NCBI GenBank assembly: GCA_028711115.1 | Contig: JAQTSV010000001.1 | Location: 1,368,928-1,432,927, forward strand | DNA length: 64,000 nt | Direction of reading: 5' to 3' | DNA from: Candidatus Omnitrophota bacterium | Lineage (GTDB): Bacteria; Omnitrophota; Gorgyraeia; Velamenicoccales; JABMQK01 | Shown here: in pieces, positions 2 through 59,951 of the stretch | Layout of the letters: every line of letters begins with the position of its first letter | How positions within the stretch are numbered: position 1 is the first letter of the stretch | The notes under the pieces: model-generated | Seen by the model: the letters and a program-made list of their open reading frames with translations, nothing else | Told to the model about the DNA's origin: nothing | Databases searched by the model: none | Made by a program: the position numbers and the translations under genes

Positions 2-718
2 AATGATCTGCCGAAAGCCGAAGATAAATTCGGCCTTAAAACTCAGGAAACCGGATTTTTCTCTTTGGGGGATCCGCTGCCCGGATTTGACAATTGGCTG
101 CCTTTGGATTTTGCGGATTTATTTAATCTTAAGGAAAAAGAATTTACGGATGTAATGCAGACTCCCCGCGGCCCGTATATATTCCAGCTCAAAGAAAAAC
201 GTCTCGACTATACTCCTAGCTTTGAGGAATTAAAAGGTAAAATCAAGAAAATACTCACCGCAGAGAAAGCCAGAGAACTCGCAAAAACCAAAATGGATAA
301 TTACTATTCGCAGATAACAACAAAAATAAAAGAAAATTCCAATCCGGATTTAATAAAAATTGCGGATAGCCTTTCGCTTCCTGTAAAAGAAACTGATTTA
401 TTCTCCAGATATACAGCCGTGCCGGAAATAGGCGCATTTGAAAATTTCAACGAGGCCGCATGCAATTTAAAAGAAGGGCAAATCAGCGAAATAACAGAAC
501 TCCCTCAGGGTTATTTTGTCGTTATTTTAATCTCACAGCGTAAACCTATAGACGAGGAAAAATTTAAGAAAGAAAAAGAAGCTGTGCAGCAGGAATTATT
601 GCGGGATAAGAAAGCCAAAGTCTTCGACGAATTTTTCGCAAGCATAAGAAGCAGGGCTAACCCAAAAGATTTCATCGGTCCGCAAGAGAAACCGAATTCT
701 CCCACCAAATCTAATTAG
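2..718 (+). CDS. PpiD/SurA-like peptidyl-prolyl isomerase-chaperone, C-terminal part (5' end lies outside the window)
   Basis: The frame is open from base 2. The translation shows the end of a parvulin-like segment (TPRGPYIFQLKEKR) followed by a long helical, Lys/Glu-rich tail as in PpiD-type chaperones. Stop TAG is at 716-718. Confidence 0.5.
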   Translation, partial: NDLPKAEDKFGLKTQETGFFSLGDPLPGFDNWLPLDFADLFNLKEKEFTDVMQTPRGPYIFQLKEKRLDYTPSFEELKGKIKKILTAEKARELAKTKMDNYYSQITTKIKENSNPDLIKIADSLSLPVKETDLFSRYTAVPEIGAFENFNEAACNLKEGQISEITELPQGYFVVILISQRKPIDEEKFKKEKEAVQQELLRDKKAKVFDEFFASIRSRANPKDFIGPQEKPNSPTKSN

Positions 719-1863: not shown

Positions 1864-4800
1864 TTATTTGACTTCGTTTTGTTCGCTGCCATAATTTAGC
1901 TGCGACAATTGTTTATATAATCTGAATCTCGCAGCAGCATCTTCCCGCGCTAACTTCATTAATTCCTCTGCTGCCTTGGGATCTGTGCTCTTTAATACTC
2001 TGTATCTATTTTCTCCGTAGGCATACTCTTCAAACGGAACTGTGGGGTCTTTGCTGTCCAACACAAACGGATTCTTGCCTTCGTTCTTTAACGCGGGATT
2101 GAATCTCAACAACGGCCAGTGTCCGCTTGCTACGGCTTTTTTCTGATCGTTAAGCAAAGCACAACCCATATCAATACCGTGGGCAATACAATGCGCGTAA
2201 GCAATGATAATGGACGGGCCGTCATAAGCCTCCGCCTCTACGAATGCGCGTACCAGCTGATTAGGATCAGCCCCTATAGCAACCTTGGCTACATAAATGT
2301 AACCATAACTCATCATCATCATCGCCAAATCTTTTTTCGCGGTCGGCTTTCCGCTGGCGGCAAACTGCGCCACAGCCGCACGCGGCGTAGACTTGGAAGC
2401 CTGCCCGCCGGTATTAGAATAAACCTCTGTGTCCAATACCAGAATGTTTACATTTTTCCCCGACGCCAATACATGATCTAAGCCGCCGTAACCAATATCA
2501 TAAGCCCAGCCATCACCGCCCACTCCCCACACCGACTTCTTTACCAGATAATCCGCCACTGACAAGAGCTCTTTTGCCAAAACGGATTTGACAGGCGGTA
2601 ACATTTTTTTGAGCCTGGCAACGCGCTCACGCTGCAGTTCAATATTTTCCTGTGTAGACTGGTCTGCTGATTTAATCTCCTTTAATAAATCTTTGAGTTT
2701 TTCTAAATTGCTACCGTCATTAATTATTCTGTCCACTAACTCCAGCGCGTACTGACTGAATTTATCCACGGCAAGCCTCATGCCAAAGGCAAACTCTGCC
2801 GCATCCTCAAATAATGAATTGCTCCATGCCGGGCCTCTGCCATCCAGGCGCTTTGTATAAGGTGTGGTGGGTAAATTTCCGCCGTATATTGAGGAACAAC
2901 CTGTGGCATTGGCAATCATCAGCCTGTCGCCAAAAAGCTGCGTGAGAAGTTTTACGTAAGCTGTCTCGCCGCAACCTGCGCAGGCACCGGAATATTCAAA
3001 TAAAGGTTTAACGAGTTGTGAGCCTTTGAGCGTATTCTTATCAAATAATTTGGGATCTGTCTCGGGCAAATCCAAAAAGAACTTATAGTTTCTGGCTTCG
3101 CTTTCACGAATAGGCACCTGCGCAACCATTTTTATCGCTTCCTTGGCTTTCACCGGACAGTTTTCTACGCAAGTCCCGCAACCAGTGCAATCCTCAGGCG
3201 CAACCTGCAATGTAAACTTCATACCTTCACTTGAACCTTTACCTTTTGGTTCTGTGGATTTAAATCCCTGCGGCGCCTTCTCCAGAAATTTGGCATCGTA
3301 CATCTTCATACGAATTGCAGCGTGCGGACAGACCAAAGAACAACGGCCGCACTGAATACAGGTCTCGGGATTCCACAGCGGAATATTAACCGCGATATTG
3401 CGTTTTTCGTATTGGGCTGTGGCTGTTGGCCAGGTTCCGTCTGCCGGCATCTGGGATACCTTAAGACTTGCGCCTTCTCTTTTAATAATCTTACAGGTAA
3501 CATCTTTTACAAATTCGGGAACATCCACTCCTTCCATTCCTGTGCATTTAATCTCTAAAACAGGATTTGTGGGTTTGGGAGGAACTTTTACCTCCTGAAT
3601 GCTGCTCAAGGCTTTGTCCACGGCGCTGATATTCATCTTCACTACATCTTCGCCTTTTCTGCCGTATGTCTTCTTAATTGCGCTCTTGATTTCCTCAATG
3701 GCGATATTTTCATCAATTACTTTTGAAATCTTAAAGAAGGCTGTCTGCATAATGGTATTGATGCGCGCGCCTAAACCTAATCCTTCTGCAATATTTATGG
3801 CATCAATCACATAGAATTTTAATTTCTTGTCGATAATCTGCTTCTGGACCATTCCGGGAAGTTTGGACCAGACTTCGTCTTTATCATAAATTGAAGTCAG
3901 CAAAAATGTCCCGCCATTCATAACGTTTTTGAGCATATCGAACTTGTCCAAAAATGAGAAATTGTGGCAGGCCAGAAAATTTGCAGAAGTAATAAGGTAG
4001 GGGCTGCGGATTATATTCTTGCCGAACCTTAAATGCGATACAGTCACCGCCCCGGCTTTTTTGGAATCGTATTCAAAATAACCCTGCGTGTAATTTTCGG
4101 TTTTCTCAGCAATAATTTTGATGGAATTTTTATTGGCGCTGACAGTACCGTCGGAACCCAAGCCATAAAACATCGCCCGGTAAACGCTGGCTGGTTCGAC
4201 GCTAAAATTATAATCGACCTCAAGGCTCGTATTCATTACGTCATCGATAACGCCGACGGTAAAATGGTTCTTGGGCTTTTTATTCTTAAGATTCTCGAAT
4301 ACTGCCTTTACCATCGCAGGCGTAAATTCTGCAGAACCCAGGCCGTAGCGCCCGCCGATAACCACAGGATAATCTTTGGATTTAAGCCATTTTTCGTGCA
4401 TTGCCTCGCCGATAGCTGTGCGTACATCTTCATATAATGGTTCGCCCAGGCTGCCCGGTTCTTTGGTGCGGTCTAATACAGCAATTCTCTTTACTTTCTT
4501 GGGTAAAACATTAGCAAATGCCTGCACATCAAATGGCCGATACAAACGCACTTTTACTACGCCTAATTTGCTGCCTTTTCTATTTAGGTATTCGACTGTC
4601 TCATGCACAACTTCTCCGCCTGAACCAATAACTACGATAATATCTTCAGCATCAGGTGAACCTACATAATCAAATAATTGATATTTCCTGCCTGTAAGCT
4701 TGGCAAATTTATCCATTTCTTCCTGCACAATCTTAGGACAGACAGCATAATATTTATTTACAGTTTCTCTGCCGATAAAATAGACATCCGGATTTTGCGA

Positions 4801-5454
4801 TGTTCCGCGCAGCACCGGATTATCCGGAGACATTCCTCTGCTGCGGTGCTGTTTGACCAATTCATTGTCAATCATCTCTTTTATATCATCGAAGGTCAGC
4901 TCTTCTATCTTCTGTATCTCGTGAGAAACGCGGAATCCTTCAAAAAAGTGCAGGAATGGTATGCGCGATCTAAGCGTAGCTGCGTGTGAAATAAGGGCAA
5001 GGTCCATTGATTCTTGCACGCTGCCGGAAGCAAGCATAGCCCAGCCGCAGGAACGCACGCCCATTACATCTGAATGATCTCCAAAAATAGACAGGGCCTG
5101 GCAGGCAAGCGAACGCGCGGCAATATGGAAAACAGCAGGCAATAATTCTCCGGAGATTTTGTACATATTGGGAATCATAAGTAAAAGCCCCTGCGAAGCG
5201 GTAAATGTCGTAGTCAGGGCCCCGGAAGTCAAAGAACCGTGCACTGCGCCTGCAGCTCCGGCCTCTGACTGCAGTTCTACAACTTTAGGAACCGTACCCC
5301 AGATATTAACCTCGCCTTTGGCTGACTTGGCATCAGCTATCTCGCCCATAGGCGATGACGGCGTAATAGGATAAATAGCAATTACCTCGTTGGTGGCATG
5401 GGCAACGTGCGCTACTGCACTATTGCCGTCATGAGGCACCATTTCACGTCTCAT
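1864..5454 (-). CDS. nifJ: Pyruvate:ferredoxin (flavodoxin) oxidoreductase, single-polypeptide PFOR
   Basis: 1196 aa with IAIYPITPSS at the N-terminus, twin CxxCxxCxxxCP ferredoxin motifs mid-protein and a GGDGWAYDIGYGGLDH TPP-binding motif. GGAGG lies 5 nt upstream of the ATG at 5454. Confidence 0.95.
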   Translation of the reverse strand: MRREMVPHDGNSAVAHVAHATNEVIAIYPITPSSPMGEIADAKSAKGEVNIWGTVPKVVELQSEAGAAGAVHGSLTSGALTTTFTASQGLLLMIPNMYKISGELLPAVFHIAARSLACQALSIFGDHSDVMGVRSCGWAMLASGSVQESMDLALISHAATLRSRIPFLHFFEGFRVSHEIQKIEELTFDDIKEMIDNELVKQHRSRGMSPDNPVLRGTSQNPDVYFIGRETVNKYYAVCPKIVQEEMDKFAKLTGRKYQLFDYVGSPDAEDIIVVIGSGGEVVHETVEYLNRKGSKLGVVKVRLYRPFDVQAFANVLPKKVKRIAVLDRTKEPGSLGEPLYEDVRTAIGEAMHEKWLKSKDYPVVIGGRYGLGSAEFTPAMVKAVFENLKNKKPKNHFTVGVIDDVMNTSLEVDYNFSVEPASVYRAMFYGLGSDGTVSANKNSIKIIAEKTENYTQGYFEYDSKKAGAVTVSHLRFGKNIIRSPYLITSANFLACHNFSFLDKFDMLKNVMNGGTFLLTSIYDKDEVWSKLPGMVQKQIIDKKLKFYVIDAINIAEGLGLGARINTIMQTAFFKISKVIDENIAIEEIKSAIKKTYGRKGEDVVKMNISAVDKALSSIQEVKVPPKPTNPVLEIKCTGMEGVDVPEFVKDVTCKIIKREGASLKVSQMPADGTWPTATAQYEKRNIAVNIPLWNPETCIQCGRCSLVCPHAAIRMKMYDAKFLEKAPQGFKSTEPKGKGSSEGMKFTLQVAPEDCTGCGTCVENCPVKAKEAIKMVAQVPIRESEARNYKFFLDLPETDPKLFDKNTLKGSQLVKPLFEYSGACAGCGETAYVKLLTQLFGDRLMIANATGCSSIYGGNLPTTPYTKRLDGRGPAWSNSLFEDAAEFAFGMRLAVDKFSQYALELVDRIINDGSNLEKLKDLLKEIKSADQSTQENIELQRERVARLKKMLPPVKSVLAKELLSVADYLVKKSVWGVGGDGWAYDIGYGGLDHVLASGKNVNILVLDTEVYSNTGGQASKSTPRAAVAQFAASGKPTAKKDLAMMMMSYGYIYVAKVAIGADPNQLVRAFVEAEAYDGPSIIIAYAHCIAHGIDMGCALLNDQKKAVASGHWPLLRFNPALKNEGKNPFVLDSKDPTVPFEEYAYGENRYRVLKSTDPKAAEELMKLAREDAAARFRLYKQLSQLNYGSEQNEVK

Positions 5455-5592: not shown

Positions 5593-7578
5593 CTACTTAC
5601 AGGCTTTCGCTGTATTTGAATTATTATTGTTGCGGGGCAGCGACTGGAGGAACCTGGAAATGATATCTTTCTCTCTATCGTTGAGACTCAGGAATTCCAA
5701 CCCCAGTTTATATTGCGTAGGCTCTTCAGACGGACGCTCCATATTCATCACCCAGGCAACACGCGCCTTAGCCAGAAGAGGACTCTTTCTGCTGGGGATA
5801 TCCAAACCTATGTCCAGCCGGCTATTCTCTTTAAAAAGGCTTCTCGATACCAGGCATATGCCGCCCTGTGAAATATCTGTGGTATGGGCTGATTCTGCTT
5901 TTTCCTTGGAAAGGTTGATTTTAACCTTGAGCTTCTGCGCGAATCTCTCGAAACGCCTACTTTCCAAACCGATATACATCCTCTTTATGTTAAAATTAGG
6001 GTAAAAATTGTTGCTGGGATGTATTTTTTCCTTATGCAGAGAAGATAAAATTCCCACATTGGCAAAAATATTTTCTTTCTCTTTTTCTTTAAAATAGTCC
6101 CTGATTCTTGAGCTCAATAAAATGCAGAGTTGCGCGGCTTGCTTTTCTTCGGTTTCGGGAATCACAATGCTAAACTCGCCGTTCTGTGTCTGGTGTAAGA
6201 ATAGCCGGGGCTTTAATTTATCCTGCTGGGAAAATTCATCGCAGGCAGACTTTACAATAGTCTGCAGGTCAGCGATTAATTGTTTCGGCTGAATTTTGAC
6301 TTTATCTTTTAACCCTTGGTAATTCACCATAAGCAAATTTATCAGATAAAACGGGATATTCTTTCTCAATAAACCATTCAAGTCCATTCGCAGCTCTTCC
6401 GGGATTATTTGTTTTGTATACAATAACGGCAAGGTAAAATAAAATTCGCTGCCCACTCCTAGGTGGGATTCAACCCATATCTGACCGCCGTGCCTTTTTA
6501 TCAATTCCCGGCAAATAGAAAGCCCCAATCCTACGCCTTTTTTCTCGGCGCCGGCTTTATTGGAAACCTGTACAAATTTATTAAACAACTTGGGCAAATC
6601 TTCCTGGGAAATTCCGATACCCGTATCCGATACGCCTACTTTAACCATGGTGTCCAAAACGCGCACATCGACTGTTATCTTTCCGTCCTGTTCGGTGAAT
6701 TTTATGGCGTTATTAATCAGATTAACGACAACCTGGCGTATCCTTTCCACGTCGATAAAAACATTAATCTGTTCCTTGGGTATTTTATAAATTATGTTTA
6801 TGCCTTTTTGGCTGGCTAATTTTATAAAGAAATCCGCGGTATCGCTAATGACGCTGTTTAAATTAACTAAAGAATAGCGAAGAGCGAACCTTTCGCTCTC
6901 AAGTCTAGATATATCAAGCAAGTCCTCTATAATCTTTTTAAGGCGCTCTACATTATCTTCTGTTTTGACAAGCAGGTCTTTTTGTTTTTCGTTGATCGGC
7001 CCGGCCAAATTATCCAGAATAAGCCTTACGCCTTCTTTTATGATTGCCAAAGGCGTCCTCAGCTCATGGGAAACGATGGAGACAAACTCGGACTTCATCT
7101 TGTTTATCTCCTGCAATGATTCTATCTTCTTTTCGATATTGACCTTTTCCTTCTCCGTGCGCTCTAACTGCATTCTGCGGGTAATATCCCTGGTGATACC
7201 CATAAGGCCGATAATCTTTCCCTTGTCGTCGTAACGGGGGACCTTGGTTGTGGAAACATAATTATCCACACCATCCGGCCGCGTGGCCCTCTCAATCTTA
7301 TCGATGATGGACTTACCTGTCCTCATCACATAGTTGTCATCTCTGGCCATCAATTTGGCGCGTTCCTTGGAAAAGATATCGAAATCAGTCTTGCCCACGA
7401 CCTGCTCAGGCGTAAGGCCCAAACCTTTTGCGTGGGCTTGATTCACTAAAACAAATCTACCTTTTCTATCCTTAACATAGACCACATCGGGAATATGATC
7501 TATCAAATCCAGGGATAGACGGTATTTGTATCTTAGGTCTTTTGTTCTGATTTTCTTTTTTGCTCTGCTTTTGATCAT
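5593..7578 (-). CDS. Cytoplasmic sensor histidine kinase: PAS - HisKA - HATPase_c - degenerate GGDEF-like - PilZ
   Basis: H-box SHELRTPL. N/G boxes NLINNAIKF, DTGIGI and GVGLGLSIC. A PAS-like N-terminus. QNGEFSIVIPETEEKQA sits in place of GGDEF. The C-terminal PilZ motifs RRFER and DISQGG are present. No TM segment is seen. Confidence 0.8.
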   Translation of the reverse strand: MIKSRAKKKIRTKDLRYKYRLSLDLIDHIPDVVYVKDRKGRFVLVNQAHAKGLGLTPEQVVGKTDFDIFSKERAKLMARDDNYVMRTGKSIIDKIERATRPDGVDNYVSTTKVPRYDDKGKIIGLMGITRDITRRMQLERTEKEKVNIEKKIESLQEINKMKSEFVSIVSHELRTPLAIIKEGVRLILDNLAGPINEKQKDLLVKTEDNVERLKKIIEDLLDISRLESERFALRYSLVNLNSVISDTADFFIKLASQKGINIIYKIPKEQINVFIDVERIRQVVVNLINNAIKFTEQDGKITVDVRVLDTMVKVGVSDTGIGISQEDLPKLFNKFVQVSNKAGAEKKGVGLGLSICRELIKRHGGQIWVESHLGVGSEFYFTLPLLYTKQIIPEELRMDLNGLLRKNIPFYLINLLMVNYQGLKDKVKIQPKQLIADLQTIVKSACDEFSQQDKLKPRLFLHQTQNGEFSIVIPETEEKQAAQLCILLSSRIRDYFKEKEKENIFANVGILSSLHKEKIHPSNNFYPNFNIKRMYIGLESRRFERFAQKLKVKINLSKEKAESAHTTDISQGGICLVSRSLFKENSRLDIGLDIPSRKSPLLAKARVAWVMNMERPSEEPTQYKLGLEFLSLNDREKDIISRFLQSLPRNNNNSNTAKACK

Positions 7579-7607: not shown

Positions 7608-7638
7608 CGGGAAATAAATGCGCTGGAGCGACCAGCGC
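7608..7638 (-). terminator. Intrinsic terminator after the fur-family gene
   Basis: Perfect 7-bp stem GCGCTGG/CCAGCGC with a 5-nt loop at 7620-7638, followed on the minus strand by ATTTATTT. Confidence 0.55.
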
Positions 7639-7650
7639 TATATATTGATA

Positions 7651-8100
7651 TTATACCTTATTATTCCTGATATTTCTATTATTCTTTTTCTTTTTTAACT
7701 TACAGAGGTCGCACAGGCCAAAAAATACCAAACGGTGGGATAAGATACGAAATCCCGTAATCTGCATCACCCTGTCGTCTAATTCTTTCATGGGAGGAAT
7801 CTTTATATCGTATATATTCTGGCAGCTGCTGCAGATAAAATGGTAATGGGAATGCGAAACTGCGTCGAACCGGCTAAAACCCGTGCCTAAATTCAGCTCC
7901 CAAATTTGACCTTTCTCTTTTAAAATACGCAGATTCCTGTAAACCGTGCCCAAGCTTAAATTCCTGAATTTTTTCTTAAGTTTACGGTAAATCCAGTCAG
8001 CCGTAGGGTGCGACTTGGAATTAACCAAAACATCCAGGATTTTCTGGCGCTGCTTGGTATTGCGATATGAATCTTTATCTTTATCTTTATTAGTAATCAT
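7651..8100 (-). CDS. Fur-family metalloregulator (PerR/Fur-like)
   Basis: HPTADWIYRKL...LGTVYRNLRIL winged-helix region, a HSHYHF segment, and two CxxC pairs (CSSC, CDLC). Confidence 0.8.
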   Translation of the reverse strand: MITNKDKDKDSYRNTKQRQKILDVLVNSKSHPTADWIYRKLKKKFRNLSLGTVYRNLRILKEKGQIWELNLGTGFSRFDAVSHSHYHFICSSCQNIYDIKIPPMKELDDRVMQITGFRILSHRLVFFGLCDLCKLKKKKNNRNIRNNKV

Positions 8101-8236
8101 TCCTATTATTATTTGTATCCTTAATTGTATAGATATTTACAGGAAAGTCAAGGTTTTTATACGGTGCTTTAGGAAGGTAATCGTTTTGGTCCTACGTACA
8201 GACTGCAGAGACTGTGAAGGGTTTATAGATATGGAT

Positions 8237-8728
8237 TTATTTCAACATTCGCTCTTTATAGTCGGATGGTAGGTCATTTTCTACCGATATCACCTTGCCT
8301 TCCTTGGAAATCAAAATTAAAGTAGGCACGCCGATAATATCGTATTGCATAGATACCATGCCATCTAAATCTAGAAGCACCGGATATTTTATATAATATC
8401 TCTGGGCAAAATTTGCCACCCTTTCTTTTGACTCGGTAATATCAATAGCCAATAATTCGATGCCGGAAGCCAACATATTGGGGTATTCTTTATTTAACAG
8501 GGGTAATTCCTGGCGGCAATACGGACACGATGTAGTCAGAAAGAATAAAACTACTGCCTTGCCCTTAAAGTCGCTGAGCGAAACATTTTTGCCCGACAAG
8601 TTAACCAAGGTAAAACCTGGCGCCTGTTGATTTTCATTTTTATTTTGCATAGAATAAAAAGAAGAAGAATCAAAACATAAAGCCAAAACCAAACATAAAG
8701 CAAAAACTACGGTAATAATCTTTCTCAT
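8237..8728 (-). CDS. TlpA/ResA-like thiol-disulfide oxidoreductase (thioredoxin fold, exported)
   Basis: CPYC active site within FFLTTSCPYCRQE. I place the start at the ATG at 8728 (MRKIITVVFALCL signal peptide), which forms an ATGA overlap with the ccdA stop. The longer ORF in the track would overlap ccdA. Confidence 0.75.
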   Translation of the reverse strand: MRKIITVVFALCLVLALCFDSSSFYSMQNKNENQQAPGFTLVNLSGKNVSLSDFKGKAVVLFFLTTSCPYCRQELPLLNKEYPNMLASGIELLAIDITESKERVANFAQRYYIKYPVLLDLDGMVSMQYDIIGVPTLILISKEGKVISVENDLPSDYKERMLK

Positions 8729-9393
8729 ATAAAATATCCTCCTGCCTGAATCAAAAAATACTCGCCTGCTCCGATTAAAATTAAACCGCAAAACTTTTTT
8801 ATTCTCGTTGCCCAAATGCCTGACTTTGGCAAATTGACAAGAATACTGCTAAACGTCCCTGACAAAATCAGTACAGTGCATAAACCGTAGGCAAAACAGA
8901 ATAATAAAAACACTCCGTACAGTAAATTTTGTTTTGTAGCCACATAGATTAATATCGTAGCCAGAACCGGCACTATACACGGGCCAACAATCAAGCCAGA
9001 AACCAAGCCTAATAAGAAAACTAAGAATATGCTCTTAGGAACAATTTTTGTTGTGTTAAATACAGGCATGGGTATTGTAAATACATCCCATAACACCAAG
9101 CCAAAGAATATGCAGACATTAGCTAAAATAAAATAAGACCAGGGATTGCCAGCCATCTGGCCAAAAACTTTTCCTGTAAGGCTTGCTAATATTCCTAAAA
9201 TAGAATAAGTAGTCGCCACTCCCAAGGCATAAATAAGGCTTAATAAAAATCCTTTGAGGCGGGAGCCGGAAGCCGAGGCACCGATATATCCGACGGTGAT
9301 AGGCACCAACGGATAAACGCAAGGAGTAAAGCTGACTAAAACTCCCGCAAAAAATGCAATAAGAAAATCTAAAGGGCTACCTGCAAGATTCAT
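8725..9393 (-). CDS. ccdA: Cytochrome c biogenesis / thiol:disulfide electron transporter CcdA (DsbD core)
   Basis: Polytopic membrane protein with SFTPCVYPLVPI and GPCIVPVL, the two conserved Cys-Pro motifs of the CcdA/DsbD family. Confidence 0.85.
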   Translation of the reverse strand: MNLAGSPLDFLIAFFAGVLVSFTPCVYPLVPITVGYIGASASGSRLKGFLLSLIYALGVATTYSILGILASLTGKVFGQMAGNPWSYFILANVCIFFGLVLWDVFTIPMPVFNTTKIVPKSIFLVFLLGLVSGLIVGPCIVPVLATILIYVATKQNLLYGVFLLFCFAYGLCTVLILSGTFSSILVNLPKSGIWATRIKKFCGLILIGAGEYFLIQAGGYFI

Positions 9394-9688
9394 TGATCCA
9401 CTCCAGATAATCTTTATTCCCAGAAACTATGTCAATTGCAATTATCTCCGGAACATCATATGGATGTTTTGATTTTATGGCCTTGACTAATTTATCAAAC
9501 AAACTTTTTTTAGTTTTGATTACCAATAATGATTCTTTGGCCTTATCTATTTTCCCCTGCCACCAGAAAAAAGAATCTACTTTGGGTATAATATTTATAC
9601 ACGCGGCCAATTTCTTGGAAAGTAAAAAATCTATCAGCTTCTTTGCTTTAAAAACTCTGGGTATCGTAACTAAAACCATAATATGCAT
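9377..9688 (-). CDS. cutA: Divalent-cation tolerance protein CutA
   Basis: 103 aa with LAACINIIP...SFFWWQGKI...HPYDVPEI, typical of CutA1. It overlaps the ccdA start by 17 nt. Confidence 0.8.
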   Translation of the reverse strand: MHIMVLVTIPRVFKAKKLIDFLLSKKLAACINIIPKVDSFFWWQGKIDKAKESLLVIKTKKSLFDKLVKAIKSKHPYDVPEIIAIDIVSGNKDYLEWINESCR

Positions 9689-9711
9689 ATTTATTTCTTA
9701 AATTTTTATCT

Positions 9712-9948
9712 TCAGGCGATATTAAGCAACGACTCTATCTTTACCCTGTCGAACCCCACGACTATATTTCCGTCGATTACGACTACCGGTACGCCCATCT
9801 GGCCGGTAAGTTTTACCATTTCCTCCAAAGATGCCTTATCAGCGGAAACATCAATATTCTGAAAGCTGACATTCTTCTGCTTCAAGTATTCTTTAACCCT
9901 TATACAATAAGGACATGTTGGCGTAGAGTAAACTTTTACTTGCGCCAT
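9712..9948 (-). CDS. Glutaredoxin-like small redox protein (NrdH/YruB-type)
   Basis: VYSTPTCPYC active site and a GVPVVVIDG motif. I prefer the ATG at 9948, which has GGAGG 5 nt upstream, over the ATG at 9960. Confidence 0.8.
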   Translation of the reverse strand: MAQVKVYSTPTCPYCIRVKEYLKQKNVSFQNIDVSADKASLEEMVKLTGQMGVPVVVIDGNIVVGFDRVKIESLLNIA

Positions 9949-9965
9949 AGCTACCTCCATTTCCT

Positions 9966-10033
9966 CCCCGTACTCACGTGCGGGGTATCCGTTCGATTTT
10001 CTTTCGAAACATTCCCCACGCGTGAGCGTGGGG
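9966..10033. repeat. Pair of inverted GC-rich tetraloop hairpins (REP/BIME-like) with a central weaker palindrome
   Basis: CCCCGTAC-TCAC-GTGCGGGG at 9966-9985 and CCCCACGC-GTGA-GCGTGGGG at 10014-10033 are near reverse-complement copies. gttcga...tcgaaac lies between them. Confidence 0.6.
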
Positions 10034-10067
10034 TACCAATATTTTACTATTTTCTGACTTAGATTTT

Positions 10068-10544
10068 CTAACCCTTAAGTCTCTTAGTTAACTGTGCCAT
10101 ACGCTGCCCGAAGCGCAAACACTCTTTTTCCACTCGCTGATCGGGTTTACCAATCGATACCGGGCCGTAGTGATCACCCTGAGGATCGCCTTGAATAATC
10201 ATACCATGAATAAGCATAGCGTTCAATATATCTAAGACCGTTGTTTCGTTGCCGCCGCCGATATTAGCACTGGAGGAAAAAGCTGCGCCGATTTTGCCGT
10301 CTAATTCACCGTGATGCGAAACGCTGTCATCGAATAACTTCTTTAAAGGTGCTGCCATTGTACCGTAATAGACAGGAGAACCCATGATAATCGCATCTGC
10401 GCCGAGCAAATCCTCTACGCCGGTATCTTTAACATCTTGCAAAACCACATCCAGTTTTTCTTTTTCCACTCCGCTCTTTATCAGTTCCGCCATTTTCTTG
10501 GTATTTCCGCTTTTCGAATAATAAACAATCAACACCTTAGCCAT
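10068..10544 (-). CDS. Flavodoxin-fold FMN protein (WrbA/flavodoxin family)
   Basis: MAKVLIVYYSKSGNTKKMAE and GSPVYYGTMAAPLK motifs. The start is set at the ATG at 10544, which has GGGAGGA 5 nt upstream. Confidence 0.75.
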   Translation of the reverse strand: MAKVLIVYYSKSGNTKKMAELIKSGVEKEKLDVVLQDVKDTGVEDLLGADAIIMGSPVYYGTMAAPLKKLFDDSVSHHGELDGKIGAAFSSSANIGGGNETTVLDILNAMLIHGMIIQGDPQGDHYGPVSIGKPDQRVEKECLRFGQRMAQLTKRLKG

Positions 10545-10593
10545 AAAATCCTCCCGTGTTTGTCTGTGAGAAAATTTCTCAATCAATTTATAA

Positions 10594-13665: not shown

Positions 13666-13914
13666 TTATCTATAGCGCAGGGTCTGAATTACCACAAGAC
13701 TGAAGAAAATAATATTTACGATGCTGTATGTTTTAAAAACAATATCCTTCGATGCAAGCGCCGAAGGAAACATTAAAATCAAACAGACAAAAACACCAAA
13801 AGCCCAAAATAGGCTTATGTCTTTTGACGACTTCCTCTTGGCGATTCTTACAATCAAAGGAATATTCCAGAAAGGCATAATTACTGCTGCGATAAGGCCT
13901 ATAATCTTAATCAT
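13666..13914 (-). CDS. PQ-loop / SemiSWEET-like 3-TM membrane protein
   Basis: 82 aa with three hydrophobic helices. [19 protein letters not shown] resembles the PQ-loop motif, with PL in place of PQ. Confidence 0.45.
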
Positions 13915-14849
13915 TTTGACTCCCTGAATTTCTTATAGTCTGCCAAAACGTCTTGGTGGTCAAAGGCGAGTTTAAAGTTTTTAATTTCGTCCAAAGATAT
14001 GATTTTTGCATTCTGGGCATCGTCTCCGGCCTTGGGCCTGCCTTTTGCCTTGGCGACAAACACCGTTGTCACTGTGTGAAAACGCGGATCACGACTGGGG
14101 TCGGAATACGTGTGCATCTGCTCTAAATCATAGATATCCAAACTTGTTTCTTCTTTTGCCTCGCGTATGGCACAGGCCTCTAAAGTTTCTCCGTAATCAA
14201 CAAATCCGCCGGGAATTGCCCAACCGAATGGCGGATTGGAACGTTCAATCAAAACAATACCGCCTTCAACTTCAATAATTATATCCACGGTGATAAACGG
14301 TCCTTGCGATAATTTATTCTGTATGTATTCCACATAACCCAGGGCATATTTTTTGAATTCACTGAATGCCTCGTCGTCGTATAAGACAAAAATAATTTCT
14401 TCTATTGGGTTGGAATCGTATTTGGCATGCCTTAAAACTTCCTGCGCCATAATTTTTGCCGCTGCCTTAAGCGGAAAACCTCCCACCCCGCAACCCAAGG
14501 CAGGAAAGGCAATGGACTTGAGTTTTAATTTCTGGGCAAGCCTTAAAGAATTGGCACAGGACTGGCGGATTTTTGTTTCATCGGTTGCAAAATCCATGCC
14601 CATAGTGGCTGCGTGAATTACATATTTTGCCTTTAAACTTCCTGCACCGGTTTCAACTGCCTCGCCGATTTTTATCGGACCTTTTTTTACTGCTTCATCT
14701 TCAATAACCTTTCCGCCTTTTTTGCGGATTACGCCGGCCACTCCGCCGCCCATAACTAATTTATTGTTTGCGGCATTGACAATGGCACCAACTTCCAATT
14801 CCGTAATGTCGCCTTTTATAATTTTTAGTTCGGTATTTTTTATCTTCAT
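13911..14849 (-). CDS. Macro domain (MacroD-type) fused to a Nudix hydrolase
   Basis: N-terminus has [27 protein letters not shown] and [12 protein letters not shown]-terminus has a Nudix box [24 protein letters not shown]. Confidence 0.85.
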
Positions 14850-19960: not shown

Positions 19961-21019
19961 CTAAACTAAATCCACTAACCTGTCAACCGCTGCCTTGATA
20001 TCCAAAAAACTATTCTTATATATATCCATGCCCTTGCCGATGGGATCTTCAATTTCTGATTTGCCCTGATTAAATTTGCTGAATTCTTTCAATAAATACA
20101 GCCTGCTTTTTAAATACGGCTTGTCTTTTAAGATTGTTTCTTCCTGCAGGCGTTCCATAACTAAAATCAAATCGCTCCTTTTGAGCATTTCTTCGTTTAC
20201 GCGCTGGGCAATGTGGCTGGATACGTCAATGCCTTCTTCTTTTAACAATTGTTTGGTCTCAAAAGAAGCGCCTGTGCCTATAGACGCGGATAATCCGGCA
20301 GAAGATACCTCAATATCGCTCCTATTTTTTTCTTTAAGTTTTTTCTCAAACAGCGCCTGCGCCATAACCGAACGGCAGGAATTTCCCGTGCAGACAAACA
20401 AAACTCTTTTCTTTGCAGCCAATTCTTTAATTAATTTATCATCAATAAAACCTTTGCGCAATATTTTAAAAGGCAGGCTGCTGGCATCCACAACCGTGGA
20501 AGGAATTCCCAATCTGACTTTGCCGCCGTCCAAAACCAATTCTATCTTTCCTTTCAGATCCTCCAATACGTCCTCTGCGCTCAGCGGCTCGCGTTTGCCC
20601 GATAAATTTGCCGACGGGCAGACCAGAGGAAAATCTAATTGTTTTAAAATATCCAAAGCCACACGGCAATCAGGCATACGTAATCCCACCGTCGGTTTAT
20701 CTTTTGACTTTAAAATTATTGTCAGAGGCCCGGGCCAGAATCTGTCCGCCAATCTGTAAGCTGCAGGCAGAACATCACAAGCAAAATTATCAATTTCATT
20801 TATATCGCAAATAAGCAGCGTAAAAGGCTTATCCTTAGACCTATTTTTTACTGCATGCAACTTTTCTACGGCCTTTGCATCATTATAATTTGCAGCTAAG
20901 CCGTAAACTGTTTCCGTGGGAAGAGCAACCAGCCCTCCGCTGCTTAAAATATCTATAACCTGATTAATCTGCTCATCGTCCAAAGAATTGTTTTTTATTT
21001 TGATTACGCGCGTCTGCAT
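19961..21019 (-). CDS. Fusion: threonylcarbamoyl-AMP synthase (YrdC/TsaC domain) + low-molecular-weight phosphatase (YwlE-like)
   Basis: N-terminus has LPTETVYGLAANY, KNRSKDKPFTLLI and VCPSANLSG. C-terminus has the VLFVCTGNSCRSVMAQ CX5R P-loop and an EDPIG general-acid motif. Confidence 0.85.
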   Translation of the reverse strand: MQTRVIKIKNNSLDDEQINQVIDILSSGGLVALPTETVYGLAANYNDAKAVEKLHAVKNRSKDKPFTLLICDINEIDNFACDVLPAAYRLADRFWPGPLTIILKSKDKPTVGLRMPDCRVALDILKQLDFPLVCPSANLSGKREPLSAEDVLEDLKGKIELVLDGGKVRLGIPSTVVDASSLPFKILRKGFIDDKLIKELAAKKRVLFVCTGNSCRSVMAQALFEKKLKEKNRSDIEVSSAGLSASIGTGASFETKQLLKEEGIDVSSHIAQRVNEEMLKRSDLILVMERLQEETILKDKPYLKSRLYLLKEFSKFNQGKSEIEDPIGKGMDIYKNSFLDIKAAVDRLVDLV

Positions 21020-27150: not shown

Positions 27151-30084
27151 TCAAAACCTCAACGTCTTTTGCCAGCTTTCTTTCAAATTCCAAATATCTT
27201 CGTCAACCACAACTTTGCCATCCAAACCGAAAATCTTTAACTGTTCTTTATCAGTGACACAGCCGATTAAGCCAAAAGGCAACCCCTTAATTAACTTTTC
27301 GAATTCTTTTTGTTTATCTTTTTCTACTTCCACGATAAATCTTGAGTTTGATTCCGAGAATAAAATCAAATCGTCGCGTTTTGGATTTTGGATTTTGGAT
27401 TTTGGATTTGTTTCGGATTTCGGATTTCGGATTTCGGATTTTCCAACTGGTACTTCTCCCAAGAATACTTCCGCGCCCAAACCGCCGGAAAAAGCCATCT
27501 CAGCCAATGCCACAGCTAATCCGCCGTCTGAACAGTCGTGCGAAGAACAAACCAGTTCTGAATTTGTTGCTTTGCTCAATGCCTGCATAATTTTTTTGGC
27601 GTAATTTTTATTAACCTTTGGCACGTTTGCGCCTAAATTTCCCAAAACATCATAATAAATCGAGCCGCCCAATTCATCGCTGGTTTCGCCCAAACAATAA
27701 ATCAAATTTCCTTCTTTTTTAAAATCAGACGAAACTGCTTTTTTTACGTCGCGCATTACGCTGATTGCGGAAATTAAAATTGTCCCGGCAATCGGTATGG
27801 AACGGCCGTGCACCATAAATTCGTTATTTAAACTGTCTTTTCCCGAGATAAACGGCGCGCCGAAATATTTGGAAAAATCATAACAGGCCTGGGCAGCGCG
27901 GACAATTCCGGCGAGCCTATCGGGCTTATCGGGATTTCCCCAGCAAAAATTATCCAATAACGCCACTTCCTCGAGCGAGCCGCCGACTGAAATAATTTGG
28001 CGAAGCGCTTCATCGATGCAGGACGCTGTCATCCAATACGGATCAATCAAACCGTACCTAAAATTTATTCCGCAGGAAATAATTATACCTTTATCCGAAT
28101 TTAAAAGCGGACGCGCGATAGCTGCGTCCTGAGGCCCGTCGTTTGAAACTCCGGCTAACGGCTTTAACACCGAGCCGCCCTGGACTTCGTGGTCGTATTG
28201 GCGGATAATCCACTCTTTGGAACAAATGTTGGGATGCGATAAAACTTTATTTAAAACAGCACCCAGGTCTTTCGCCTCTTTTATTTTCGGCTCTTTGTGT
28301 TCTTTTTTAATCCAAATCGCTTTTTTGGTTATTTTGGGATTTCCTTTGTGCAAAAATTCCATATCCAAATCGCAGACTTTTTTTCTTTGATAAAATAATT
28401 CTAATTTTCCTGTATCGGTAAACTCGCCCAAAACAGTTACGTCCGCATTTTCTAAATCAAAAATCTCTTTTAGCCTTTTCAGATTTTTCTTGGGAACAGA
28501 TAAAACCATTCTCTCCTGCGCCTCAGAAATCCAGATTTCGGTGTAAGTCAGGCCTTTATATTTTAAGGGGACTTTTTCCAAGTCAACTCTTGCGCCCAAT
28601 TCTTCTCCCATTTCGCCCACTGCGCTGGACAAGCCTCCGGCGCCGCAATCTGTAATCGCAGAATATAAATTTTCATCGCGCGCCTTAAGGATTGCCTCGA
28701 GCATTTTCTTCTCGGTGATAGGATTTCCTATCTGCACGGCGCCGCCGGAAATACTCTCCGATTCGTGCGTCAATTCTCCGGATGAAAAAGTCGCGCCGTG
28801 AATTCCGTCCCTGCCGGTTTTTCCGCCTACAACAATAACCAAGTCGCCTGTTTTGGTTTTCTTAAAAGATTTATCCTTGGGCATTATGCCAACGGTGCCG
28901 CAATACACTAAAGGATTTCCCACAAAAGATTCGTCGAATAAAACCGCTCCGTTTACCGTGGGAATTCCCATTTTGTTTCCGTAATCCCTTACTCCGGAGA
29001 CAACGCCTTTCATCACTCTTTTGGGATGAAGTGTGCCTTTGGGAAGTTTTGAATACGGATAATCAATCGGCCCAAAACAAAACACGTCTGTGTTTAATAT
29101 CGGCTTTGAACCCAAACCCGTGCCCATAGGGTCTCTTATCACTCCGCCGATTCCTGTGTTGGCGCCGCCAAAAGGCTCCAACGCCGAGGGATGATTATGA
29201 GTTTCCACCTTAAAACAAACGTTATAATCTTTGTCAAATTTTATCACGCCGGAATTATCCTTAAAAACCGAAACGCACCAGGGCTTGTTTAATTCTTCGG
29301 TTGCTTTGGCTATAGTAGATTTCAAAAGGTTGTTTATTGTTTTCTTTCTGCCATTTTCGCTATATTCAATCAATCCTCTGAATGTCTTATGGTTACAATG
29401 TTCGGACCAGGTCTGGGCGATTGTTTCCAGTTCGCAGTCAGTAGGATTTCTCTCCAGCGAGCGAAAATAATCTTTTATCGCGCGCATTTCCGTAAGATTT
29501 AAAAACAGCTGGCCGTTTTTGCTTATCTTTTCCAATTCCTTGTCATCCGCTCCCAGGATATCAACTTTTACCAGTTTAAATTTATATTCCAAAGGCTTAT
29601 GCTCTGAAAACATATCTTTTATATTAACAATGCGTTCTATTGTCTTATTGTATAAAAGTTTTTCGCAGATTTTATTGAAATCTCCTTGCGAGATATTTCC
29701 TAAAAGAGCGTATTTTTTGGATGTGTGCAATGCCTGGATATTTTTTATCCCTAAATCCCTTATGCCTTTTAAGGCTGATTCTTCGACGGGATCCATAACT
29801 CCGGGGTTGTAGGCGATTTCGACAACTTTCATTTGCGAATCAGAGAAAAAACCGTCTTTGGGTTTGGAAACAATTCTAAACTCTTGCGAAATTTTATCGA
29901 TTAATAATTCACGCGAGATTTTAATGATTTCCTGGCGGGATAATTTTCCCTGAAGATAATATATCTGGACGAAACGAACTTCTTCGACGCAATTTATGCC
30001 TAAGTCTAAGACGCCTTTTTTTACACTCTCCCCGACCGCATCAAAAATACCTTCCCTGTCTTTGACTTCTACCCTGAAGAGCAT
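27151..30084 (-). CDS. purL: FGAM synthase II PurL with N-terminal PurS-like extension (PurS-PurL fusion)
   Basis: 977 aa. The core carries TWSEHCNHKTF, VETHNHPS and GGKTGRDGIHGATFSS. About 180 extra N-terminal residues look like two PurS-like repeats. No separate purS is present in the operon. Confidence 0.9.
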   Translation of the reverse strand: MLFRVEVKDREGIFDAVGESVKKGVLDLGINCVEEVRFVQIYYLQGKLSRQEIIKISRELLIDKISQEFRIVSKPKDGFFSDSQMKVVEIAYNPGVMDPVEESALKGIRDLGIKNIQALHTSKKYALLGNISQGDFNKICEKLLYNKTIERIVNIKDMFSEHKPLEYKFKLVKVDILGADDKELEKISKNGQLFLNLTEMRAIKDYFRSLERNPTDCELETIAQTWSEHCNHKTFRGLIEYSENGRKKTINNLLKSTIAKATEELNKPWCVSVFKDNSGVIKFDKDYNVCFKVETHNHPSALEPFGGANTGIGGVIRDPMGTGLGSKPILNTDVFCFGPIDYPYSKLPKGTLHPKRVMKGVVSGVRDYGNKMGIPTVNGAVLFDESFVGNPLVYCGTVGIMPKDKSFKKTKTGDLVIVVGGKTGRDGIHGATFSSGELTHESESISGGAVQIGNPITEKKMLEAILKARDENLYSAITDCGAGGLSSAVGEMGEELGARVDLEKVPLKYKGLTYTEIWISEAQERMVLSVPKKNLKRLKEIFDLENADVTVLGEFTDTGKLELFYQRKKVCDLDMEFLHKGNPKITKKAIWIKKEHKEPKIKEAKDLGAVLNKVLSHPNICSKEWIIRQYDHEVQGGSVLKPLAGVSNDGPQDAAIARPLLNSDKGIIISCGINFRYGLIDPYWMTASCIDEALRQIISVGGSLEEVALLDNFCWGNPDKPDRLAGIVRAAQACYDFSKYFGAPFISGKDSLNNEFMVHGRSIPIAGTILISAISVMRDVKKAVSSDFKKEGNLIYCLGETSDELGGSIYYDVLGNLGANVPKVNKNYAKKIMQALSKATNSELVCSSHDCSDGGLAVALAEMAFSGGLGAEVFLGEVPVGKSEIRNPKSETNPKSKIQNPKRDDLILFSESNSRFIVEVEKDKQKEFEKLIKGLPFGLIGCVTDKEQLKIFGLDGKVVVDEDIWNLKESWQKTLRF
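27381..27442. repeat. Heptanucleotide tandem repeats inside purL: (GGATTTT)x3-4 then (CGGATTT)x4
   Basis: The plus strand reads ttGGATTTTGGATTTTGGATTTTGGATTTGTTTCGGATTTCGGATTTCGGATTTCGGATTTt. This encodes ...SEIRNPKSETNPKSKIQNPKRDD... in PurL. Confidence 0.9.
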
Positions 30085-33661: not shown

Positions 33662-34720
33662 ATGAGAACATATAATAAATTAATATTGGCTGTACTTATA
33701 ATATTTATCTCCCTGCCATTTTTCTGCGGCTACGCATCGCTGCAGAATAAAACCATAAGCGCCTGGCTGGCATACTGGGATATTAAAAATGGCATGTGGC
33801 AGCTCAAGAATAATTTCTTGGACAAGATAGACGAAGTGGCCCTGTTTTTTTATGCCCTTGATAAAGACGGTAATATCGTAAATATCGCCAAAGACCCCGG
33901 GGAATGCCGTCAGGTAATCGATACTCTGCATCAATTAGGCATAAAAGCCATTCCCGCCGTTACCAATGACGTCATCTACTCCGCCTCGGAAAAGAAAATC
34001 AAGGAGCCGCAGATACTGCACGATATTTTAAGCGATGAAAATTCCAGGCAGAAACATATCCAGCGCCTTATGGAGATAATAAAAGAGACCAATGCCGACG
34101 GCATAGATATAGATTATGAAAATATGTATACGGAAGATAACGAGCTGTTTGCACTGTTTATCAGAGAACTGGCCGATACGCTGCACGGCGAAAATAAAAC
34201 TTTGATTGTCACGGTGCAGCAAAAAATAGAAGACCACCGGAAATCCTGGGCAGGGACCGTCAACTGGCGCCAAATCGCCAAATACGCAGACAGGGTTACG
34301 ATTATGTGTTACAACTATTCCTCCAAAGTAAGCAGGCCCGGGCCCATCTGCCCTGCCTTCTGGCTAATAGATATCATCGAATTCGCAAAGTCGCAGATAC
34401 CTTTGGAGAAAATCAGTATTGCCCTGGGATTTTACGGCTACGACTGGTCAAAGGGTGAAGCAAATACTGTGAATTTCAGGCAGGCCAAAGCCCTGGCTGA
34501 ATCAAACAATACTAAAATAAACTGGGATAAAAAAAGCCAAAGCCCTTATTTTTCCTACTCTAAAGACGGCGCCGGGCACGTAGTATGGTTTGAAAACGAA
34601 CAGAGTATGGCAAAAAAAATACAAATCCTCAGGAAATATAAAATCCAAAGTATCTCCCTCTGGCACATGGGTTTATTAGACCCTGTCTTCTTAGAAGACA
34701 TTACATCATTTTCCAAATAG
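33662..34720 (+). CDS. Glycoside hydrolase family 18-like protein (secreted/anchored)
   Basis: N-terminal hydrophobic anchor. A DGIDIDYE catalytic motif (DxxDxDxE) and a C-terminal SLWHMG. Confidence 0.75.
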   Translation: MRTYNKLILAVLIIFISLPFFCGYASLQNKTISAWLAYWDIKNGMWQLKNNFLDKIDEVALFFYALDKDGNIVNIAKDPGECRQVIDTLHQLGIKAIPAVTNDVIYSASEKKIKEPQILHDILSDENSRQKHIQRLMEIIKETNADGIDIDYENMYTEDNELFALFIRELADTLHGENKTLIVTVQQKIEDHRKSWAGTVNWRQIAKYADRVTIMCYNYSSKVSRPGPICPAFWLIDIIEFAKSQIPLEKISIALGFYGYDWSKGEANTVNFRQAKALAESNNTKINWDKKSQSPYFSYSKDGAGHVVWFENEQSMAKKIQILRKYKIQSISLWHMGLLDPVFLEDITSFSK

Positions 34721-37423: not shown

Positions 37424-37438
37424 ATCTCTTCCTTTAAC

Positions 37439-37473
37439 CAAAAAGGCAACCCCTTTTTAGAGAGTTGCCTTAA
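37439..37473 (-). terminator. Terminator-like hairpin, paralogous to the one at 35783-35816
   Basis: The minus strand reads AAGGCAACUCU-CUAAAAA-GGGGUUGCCUUUUUGG, about 15 nt upstream of the FG-GAP gene ATG at 37423. Confidence 0.65.

Positions 37474-57110: not shown

Positions 57111-59951
<2,841 letters not shown>

Follow-up and report, generated by a model that had tools for sequence, protein, structure and literature searches.

How might a soluble sensor kinase come to read cyclic diguanylate (c-di-GMP), and what might it govern? The question is raised by a gene of the phylum Omnitrophota, located in a 64-kb window (the whole stretch of DNA analysed here, 64,000 nucleotides of contig JAQTSV010000001.1 in assembly GCA_028711115.1), which encodes a histidine kinase whose catalytic core is followed by a GGDEF-like stretch and a PilZ domain. 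Our best reading, which we hold with a little more belief than doubt, is that of a c-di-GMP-gated histidine kinase/phosphatase with the PilZ domain as its input, a relic GGDEF domain as its relay and a CheY-like regulator as its substrate. The open reading frame (ORF) at 5593..7578 on the minus strand is uninterrupted over 661 codons from an ATG start, and the ORF list and its translation give a protein of 661 amino acids (aa) with the following layout:

5593..7578, minus strand: full gene of the soluble kinase, PAS-HisKA-HATPase_c-(relic GGDEF)-PilZ, 661 aa (ORF list, translation)
7174..7500, minus strand: PAS sensor domain, residues 27-135 (Pfam PAS_4, E 1.3e-21)
6892..7098, minus strand: HisKA dimerisation/phospho-acceptor domain, residues 161-229 (Pfam HisKA, E 3.1e-16)
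6424..6753, minus strand: HATPase_c ATP-binding domain, residues 276-385, with intact N, G1 and G2 boxes (Pfam, E 5.3e-31)
5971..6399, minus strand: predicted relic GGDEF-like domain, residues ~394-536 (AlphaFold2, Foldseek and a profile bridge; without a Pfam match)
5644..5961, minus strand: PilZ domain, residues 540-645 (Pfam PF07238, E 2.5e-13, 50.7 bits against a cut-off of 22.5)

The four Pfam domains (PAS_4, HisKA, HATPase_c and PilZ) all score well over their gathering thresholds and follow one another in the order that a preliminary description, made from the sequence, had given; the motifs SHELRTPL, QNGEF, RRFER and DISQGG lie exactly where it had placed them. The domain assignment and structure prediction that it had proposed as a check were carried out and recovered the PilZ domain by Pfam as well as by fold, and a probable GGDEF-like fold by AlphaFold2 and Foldseek. 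Profile and fold evidence agrees with the proposed architecture, in which PAS, HisKA and HATPase_c are followed by a probable degenerate GGDEF domain and then by a PilZ domain with intact motifs. Since the highest Kyte-Doolittle mean over 19 residues is only 1.04, a transmembrane helix is not expected and the protein should be soluble, as had likewise been claimed. Pfam matched no Response_reg domain C-terminal to the kinase core, as a hybrid kinase would carry, and the NCBIfam matches are to generic sensor-kinase models only, far under their equivalog cut-offs. An identical kinase of 661 aa (protein P0001) is present in the NCBI Candidatus Omnitrophica metagenome-assembled genome GCA_028716625.1.

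The kinase belongs to a family of at least 120 full-length clusters (49-60% identical, 622-685 aa) that have the same PAS/HisKA/HATPase_c/PilZ set. All taxon-named members are from Omnitrophota/Omnitrophica, and the public entries are annotated only as 'ATP-binding protein' or 'PAS domain-containing protein'. Not every search was suited to recovering the family: a word-seeded homologue search with the 276-aa C-terminal fragment returned nothing even though the database includes an identical protein of full length, which we take as a limit of word-seeding, and in a locus search by full-length alignment most matches were due to the generic kinase motif NAIKFTE, with near-full-length ones only at L007 and L008. 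Residue conservation and per-domain identity were computed over 40 aligned relatives, and the figures on conservation given below refer to this sample. The PAS domain is the best-conserved part of the family (75% mean identity), which argues for a specific ligand or partner. In the HisKA domain, the phospho-acceptor H171 is included in the motif SHELRTPL and is invariant in all 40 relatives, together with the HExxT residues E172 and T175. The HExxT motif is tied to phosphatase activity in HisKA kinases. The same invariance (40/40) holds for the ATP-binding domain, with N286 and N290 of the N-box, D318, G320 and G322 of G1, and G348, G350 and G352 of G2. The kinase core is, by its residues, catalytically complete.

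A candidate c-di-GMP site is offered by the PilZ domain. Its RxxxR motif is formed by R541 and R545 (RRFER, residues 541-545, nt 5958-5944) N-terminal to the barrel, and its D/NxSxxG motif, 22 residues past R545, by D568, S570 and G573 (DISQGG, residues 568-573, nt 5877-5860). R541, R545, S570 and G573 are present in 40 of 40 relatives, and position 568 is an aspartate in 39 of them and an asparagine in the remaining one. Mean identity of the PilZ domain to the window protein is only 39%, and the retention of the motif residues despite this divergence indicates purifying selection on the ligand site. In an AlphaFold2 model of the two C-terminal domains (residues 388-661; mean predicted local distance difference test score, pLDDT, 83.8), pLDDT is mostly >90 in the PilZ part. 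Foldseek on this model gave 38 PDB matches at E<=1e-3, led by c-di-GMP-bound PilZ structures. Alg44 (4rt0), P. aeruginosa 4xrn, YcgR, MapZ, MrkH and BcsA were matched with E values from 4e-7 to 1e-4; for Alg44, 4xrn, YcgR and MapZ, E was 4e-7 to 1e-5 and the template modelling (TM) score on the target 0.65-0.78, with 4xrn reaching 0.78. The PilZ domain with both motifs intact, as first described, is therefore borne out by Pfam, by conservation in 40/40 relatives and by matches to the six-stranded barrel fold of solved PilZ domains. Binding of c-di-GMP by the domain is a plausible prediction from these residues, and a direct c-di-GMP input is plausible because the motifs are so strictly conserved.

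What, then, lies between the ATP-binding domain and PilZ? Pfam finds nothing in this stretch of ~140 aa (residues ~390-535) even at E<=1, and the threshold of the GGDEF family PF00990 is not reached. An AlphaFold2 model of the linker (residues 388-536, built from 32 family sequences) has a pLDDT of 79.5 and a predicted TM score of 0.76, with the element order alpha-beta-alpha-alpha-beta-beta-alpha-beta-beta. When this model was compared with the PDB by Foldseek, nearly all of the best matches were to GGDEF domains (those of DosC, T. maritima TM1788, a Geobacter protein, GcbC, WspR, SiaD and LapD), at probabilities of 0.97-1.0, E values of 0.02-0.1 and TM scores of 0.42-0.54 over ~100 residues; one class III adenylyl cyclase is also among them. 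Weak Pfam GGDEF matches occur in 5 of the 32 family members (best E 0.0038), and the family profile meets a PDB diguanylate cyclase across the signature region at E 0.9.

The clearest bridge to GGDEF domains came from an exhaustive hidden Markov model (HMM) search in which the linker profile was run over 1.84 billion protein representatives and gave only 46 matches at E<=1e-3. Among these, 14 are proteins of ~650 aa that align at ~385-540, and most of the others are shorter, with HATPase_c, with or without PilZ, in four of the five shorter ones checked; P0161, P0162 and P0166 are low-complexity or unrelated multi-stretch matches. The only clear match outside the family among all these representatives is P0165, an 819-aa kinase of the layout MASE3-PAS-HisKA-HATPase_c-GGDEF, on whose Pfam GGDEF domain (E 7.5e-12) the linker profile aligns exactly; hhalign of the profile to the P0165 sequence gives a probability of 92.9% (E 3.7e-7). 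The GGDEF domain of P0165 passes Pfam yet is itself degenerate (…KDTGEL…), and the protein is without PilZ. P0165 looks like a mid-stage in the decay of a kinase-GGDEF fusion.

Residue correspondence was taken from PleD, whose sequence was checked against 1w25, with hhalign used for the residue register only; the register agrees with an alignment made by eye. QNGEF (residues 465-469, nt 6186-6172) lies at the position of the GGDEF signature, with Q465-N466-G467-E468-F469 on G368-G369-E370-E371-F372 of PleD. Positions 465, 466 and 469 are variable over the relatives, and of the signature only G467 is conserved. The invariant N419 stands for the first, metal-binding Asp of DxD in the by-eye register of beta1, outside the region aligned by hhalign. 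The counterparts of R359 and D362 in the I-site of PleD are R458, a glutamine in most relatives, and a gap; no RxxD I-site was found, as the aligned positions are not conserved as R and D across the 40 relatives in this register. Conservation in the linker centres on N419 and F505, which are invariant, and on G467 and Y495, which are nearly so. Because the signature, the metal Asp and the I-site are all lost, the linker would be neither a cyclase nor an I-site receptor. Judging from alignments and models, it is best described as a relic GGDEF domain, strongly decayed; the preliminary claim of a degenerate GGDEF-like fold with the signature QNGEF is supported by the AlphaFold2 and Foldseek results and by the P0165 bridge, with decay having gone further than first proposed.

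Two other identities of the linker were considered and rejected. A degenerate receiver, which would make the protein a hybrid kinase, does not agree with the element order, which is beta-alpha-alpha-beta-beta-alpha-beta and not (beta-alpha)5, with the lack of a Response_reg match or with the GGDEF fold matches. A partner of the PilZN/YcgR-N type is ruled out by the alpha/beta fold and by the lack of any match to PF07317 or PF12945.

How could binding at PilZ reach the catalytic core? We picture a cytoplasmic, presumably dimeric, bifunctional kinase/phosphatase with two inputs, the signal of the PAS domain and c-di-GMP at the C-terminal PilZ domain. In the two-domain model a strand at model residues 142-151 (protein ~529-538) leads straight into RxxxR, and the linker-only model also has a strand there (142-148). 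This strand may pair with the GGDEF-like sheet, which would place RxxxR at the seam between relic GGDEF and PilZ. YcgR and PlzD are examples of PilZ receptors with two domains, and in these the barrel changes its orientation relative to the N-terminal domain when c-di-GMP occupies the RxxxR between the two. By analogy, c-di-GMP at the seam would re-orient the PilZ barrel against the relic GGDEF, and this movement, passed on through the relic, might restrict or release the ATP-binding domain and so shift the balance between kinase and phosphatase. The relic GGDEF starts only ~8 residues past the ATP-binding domain, which is why such a movement would be expected to reach it. The likely substrate would be a CheY-like single-domain response regulator.

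No such regulator was found nearby. In the 64-kb window no receiver domain was found by tblastn with the receivers of CheY, Spo0F, PhoB and NtrC (none significant), by tblastn with the partner regulators of orthologues (nothing) or by Pfam scans of 51 window ORFs. The context of orthologues, sampled at ten loci by exact-protein look-up, is different. A single-domain CheY-like receiver of ~122 aa lies at most three genes downstream of the kinase in six of the ten (L001, L002, L003, L006, L087 and L088); it adjoins the kinase gene in five of these six, and in L088 one CHASE-PAS kinase gene intervenes. These receivers have all the phospho-acceptor residues of CheY and are very alike among themselves. 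In five of the six regulator-linked loci the receiver is followed by a T2SSE (PilB/GspE-type) ATPase and T2SSF (GspF/PilC); N_methyl pilins were called in L002, L003, L006 and L087, and PilM in L002, L006 and L087, while the L088 locus stops within T2SSF. The remaining four loci (L004, L005, L089 and L090) have no adjacent receiver. The lack of an adjacent response regulator, pointed out in the preliminary description, thus holds for the window and its closest relatives but not as a trait of the family, and the orphan state is a local peculiarity of these genomes. With a regulator within three genes in 6/10 orthologue loci, a dedicated partner of the kinase is probably encoded at some other place in its own genome, and a truly partnerless kinase is unlikely.

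In a neighbour-joining tree the window protein forms a separate clade with P0002 and P0003 (57-60% identical, its closest relatives), and the regulator-linked arrangement is spread over most of the tree. This fits an ancestral kinase-regulator-pilus unit from which the gene of this clade was relocated. Ancestrally, the family probably controlled a type IV pilus-like machine in response to c-di-GMP, because a CheY-like regulator (6/10 loci) and then a GspE/PilB-GspF/PilC cluster (five loci) lie downstream. Here, as in the closest relatives, the gene would have moved beside a Fur/peroxiredoxin/DsbD redox cluster.

Two observations were made along these loci. At 7001-15135 of L088, a second kinase (CHASE-PAS, 1091 aa) and then three tandem genes for single-domain receivers stand between the PilZ kinase and the pilus ATPase, which suggests a multi-kinase, multi-regulator relay ahead of the pilus genes. 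The neighbouring pilus ATPases, labelled MshEN by Pfam, were considered as c-di-GMP receptors in their own right and rejected, since they fit the published 24-residue motif poorly, with two substitutions and no leading Arg even in the best case.

The biology of the phylum gives this picture some context. GGDEF domains and small pilZ genes have been reported in Omnitrophota (10.1101/2023.11.21.568195), and a genomic survey describes type IVa pili as near-universal in the phylum and ties them to host attachment (PMC10066038). By a term search, the main text of that survey does not mention c-di-GMP, PilZ, two-component or histidine kinase (PMC10066038). A more far-reaching proposal would be that c-di-GMP controls this kinase in a further way, distinct in mechanism from those known: a PilZ barrel pivoting on a fossil GGDEF domain would clamp the ATP-binding domain and flip the kinase/phosphatase toward a CheY-like regulator of type IV pilus attachment in ultra-small and possibly host-dependent Omnitrophota. 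The fossil domain would then be the trace of a kinase that once made c-di-GMP and now only reads it. We put this forward tentatively and consider it rather doubtful as a whole.

Several points weigh against gating by PilZ through a relic GGDEF domain. The fold match of the linker is modest, with no Foldseek match below E 1e-3 and no TM score above 0.54, and the direct hhalign comparison of the linker profile with PleD is insignificant (4.3%). The geometry of the seam was read from secondary-structure strings of monomer models. Neither the window nor a further ~248 kb of DNA from Omnitrophota gave a cyclase by tblastn with the PleD GGDEF domain, a sample too small to conclude from. Finally, the window is without a partner regulator or pilus genes and its clade stands apart from the regulator-linked members of the family, so that the link to the pilus might not extend to the kinase described here.

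The main rival accepts that PilZ binds c-di-GMP and holds that binding does not alter catalysis but localises, sequesters or docks the kinase, for instance on the pilus ATPase. Binding that controls localisation or docking has been reported for SgmT (PMC3509222), a PilB-PilZ-FimX complex at type IV pili has been described (PMC8389850), and the present family is often encoded beside a pilus ATPase. On the other hand, a C-terminal module placed ~8 residues past the ATP-binding domain favours a direct mechanical effect, the protein is soluble, and there are no pilus genes near its gene in this genome. We regard docking as fairly unlikely for this kinase.

Less probable again is a PilZ domain that does not bind c-di-GMP in vivo and has a structural or interaction role, or takes another nucleotide, with the kinase regulated through PAS only. 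PilZ domains that do not bind c-di-GMP are generally without RxxxR and/or D/NxSxxG, whereas here each motif residue is kept in 40/40 relatives despite 39% identity in PilZ, as expected from selection on a ligand site. The missing cyclase gene in the window and the ~248 kb of Omnitrophota DNA would agree with non-binding, as would the reduced genomes of the phylum (PMC10066038) and the precedent of Pkn1 of M. xanthus, a predicted non-binder (PMC8316039), but GGDEF domains and other pilZ genes have been reported in the phylum (10.1101/2023.11.21.568195).

About as improbable is that the linker is a ligand-binding or enzymatic domain of its own (for example for GTP, ATP or c-di-GMP) and the real regulator, or else that it does not derive from GGDEF at all: the invariant N419 and F505 and the nearly invariant G467 and Y495 indicate that something is under selection, degenerate GGDEF receptors such as SgmT are known (PMC3509222), inactivated GGDEF domains are widespread c-di-GMP binders according to a PilZ review (10.1101/814665) and the fold match is only moderate. 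Yet the linker is without an RxxD I-site, a GG pair or conserved guanine-binding N/D positions, and conservation in it falls mostly on residues of the hydrophobic core or of turns. GGDEF ancestry is favoured by the bridge to P0165 and by the fact that the top fold matches are consistently GGDEF domains.

How does a kinase gated through PilZ and a relic GGDEF compare with known systems? Direct control of histidine kinases by c-di-GMP is known from a handful of cases, each with a different binding site. In Caulobacter, c-di-GMP binds the catalytic ATP-binding domain of CckA and the pseudo-receiver of ShkA. In RavS of Xanthomonas it binds the PAS domain (PMC6707612). In all three, c-di-GMP directly controls the kinase/phosphatase or phosphotransfer activity, which is the functional class proposed here; c-di-GMP-regulated histidine kinases are a functional class and not a sequence family, and of these three kinases none uses PilZ and none belongs to the sequence family of the window kinase. 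SgmT of M. xanthus (GAF-kinase-REC-degenerate GGDEF), which binds c-di-GMP via the I-site of its GGDEF domain (PMC3509222), is likewise an orphan histidine kinase with a catalytically inactive C-terminal GGDEF domain and is linked to type IV pilus-dependent behaviour. It differs by its fused receiver and by I-site binding, both of which the window kinase lacks, having a separate PilZ domain as the candidate site.

The receptors YcgR, PlzD/VCA0042, MrkH and MotI share the canonical PilZ barrel and carry RxxxR in the stretch that links it to a partner domain on its N-terminal side. Here this partner would be a relic GGDEF domain and not a PilZN-type barrel (no PilZN or PilZNR match), and the module is appended to a kinase, in contrast to the stand-alone effectors of the YcgR type. 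P0165 resembles the window kinase in that a PAS-kinase core leads directly into a GGDEF domain that is itself degenerate (…TGEL…), but it is membrane-bound via MASE3 and without PilZ, and Pfam still recognises its GGDEF domain (E 7.5e-12). Fusions of PilZ to other two-component or c-di-GMP signalling domains are documented: a review lists REC, GGDEF, EAL, HD-GYP, MCP and CheC, with histidine kinases absent from the list (10.1101/814665), PixA of M. xanthus is a PilZ-REC protein (PMC8316039), and PilZ-GGDEF combinations exist (PMC5932348). In the window protein PilZ is joined to HisKA/HATPase_c instead, and for such a histidine kinase-PilZ protein we found no characterised example in the searchable full-text literature. 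PilZ is the commonest dedicated c-di-GMP receptor domain, with no studied kinase example found. By comparison with these systems, c-di-GMP-responsive histidine kinases are already established and PilZ as the proposed input would be the novel part.

The family is conserved across a phylum that is uncultured and made up of very small bacteria, whose type IV pili presumably attach them to host or prey cells. If gating by PilZ holds, the kinase would be a compact, soluble model of how a PilZ domain passes ligand binding on to an enzyme, a first handle on the regulation of pili in Omnitrophota, and an example of a synthase domain decayed into a structural adaptor. If it does not, the protein would be one further uncharacterised multi-domain sensor kinase.

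In the window the kinase gene has these neighbours:

7651..8100, minus strand: Fur-family regulator gene, directly upstream of the kinase (Pfam FUR, E 2.7e-31)
8237-8815, minus strand: AhpC/TSA peroxiredoxin
8725-9393, minus strand: DsbD_TM
9377-9688, minus strand: CutA1
9712-9960, minus strand: glutaredoxin-like protein
10068-10586, minus strand: flavodoxin
1864..5454, minus strand: pyruvate:ferredoxin oxidoreductase, directly downstream of the kinase (Pfam POR_N, POR, EKR and TPP_enzyme_C)

The genes upstream form a compact redox/metal-stress cluster (7651-10586, minus strand). The adjacency of Fur and kinase is common to the two closest relatives (L004 and L005) and is also seen in L091-L093; the closest, L004, repeats the order DsbD-AhpC-Fur-kinase, and L005 has Fur-kinase. 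This adjacency could reflect shared ancestry or a functional link, e.g. a redox-sensing PAS domain acting with a PerR-like Fur. Downstream, the oxidoreductase gene sits where many orthologues have the partner response regulator.

Around the kinase gene, promoter and terminator consensus matches were no commoner than in shuffled sequence. A promoter-like TTGACT-17-TAAAAT at 5550-5522 is a consensus match only, of a kind not enriched over shuffles. Between the fur stop and the kinase start lies a 7-bp G+C-rich inverted repeat with a T-rich tail (GCGCTGG-TCGCT-CCAGCGC, 7620-7638), which is terminator-like, such matches again not being enriched over shuffled sequence.

Elsewhere in the window, a number of sizeable ORFs had no Pfam match at E<=1e-5, the largest unannotated gene among them encoding 792 aa:

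54601-56979, minus strand: ORF of 792 aa
41145-42149, plus strand: ORF of 334 aa
32713-33522, minus strand: ORF of 269 aa
34760-35203, minus strand: ORF of 147 aa
26674-27090, minus strand: ORF of 138 aa

Other genes were recognisable by their domains:

65-718, plus strand: Rotamase_2 peptidyl-prolyl isomerase ORF, at the window edge
13911-14849, minus strand: Macro and NUDIX, fused gene
19961-21019, minus strand: Sua5/YrdC and low-molecular-weight phosphotyrosine phosphatase, fused gene
57111-59180, minus strand: dethiobiotin synthetase (AAA_26) and BioA-type aminotransferase, fused gene
27151-30084, minus strand: PurS and PurL, fused gene
33662-34720, plus strand: GH18 chitinase-like protein
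36179-37441, minus strand: FG-GAP repeat protein
51215-53338, minus strand: GH2-like glycosidase

A conserved Rotamase_2 isomerase is described in a preprint as belonging to a type II secretion-like locus that precedes the giant genes of Omnitrophota (10.1101/2023.11.21.568195). The four fused genes may reflect gene fusion in a reduced genome, and the GH18, FG-GAP and GH2-like proteins might be tied to the proposed lifestyle of surface attachment and cell-wall degradation in Omnitrophota.

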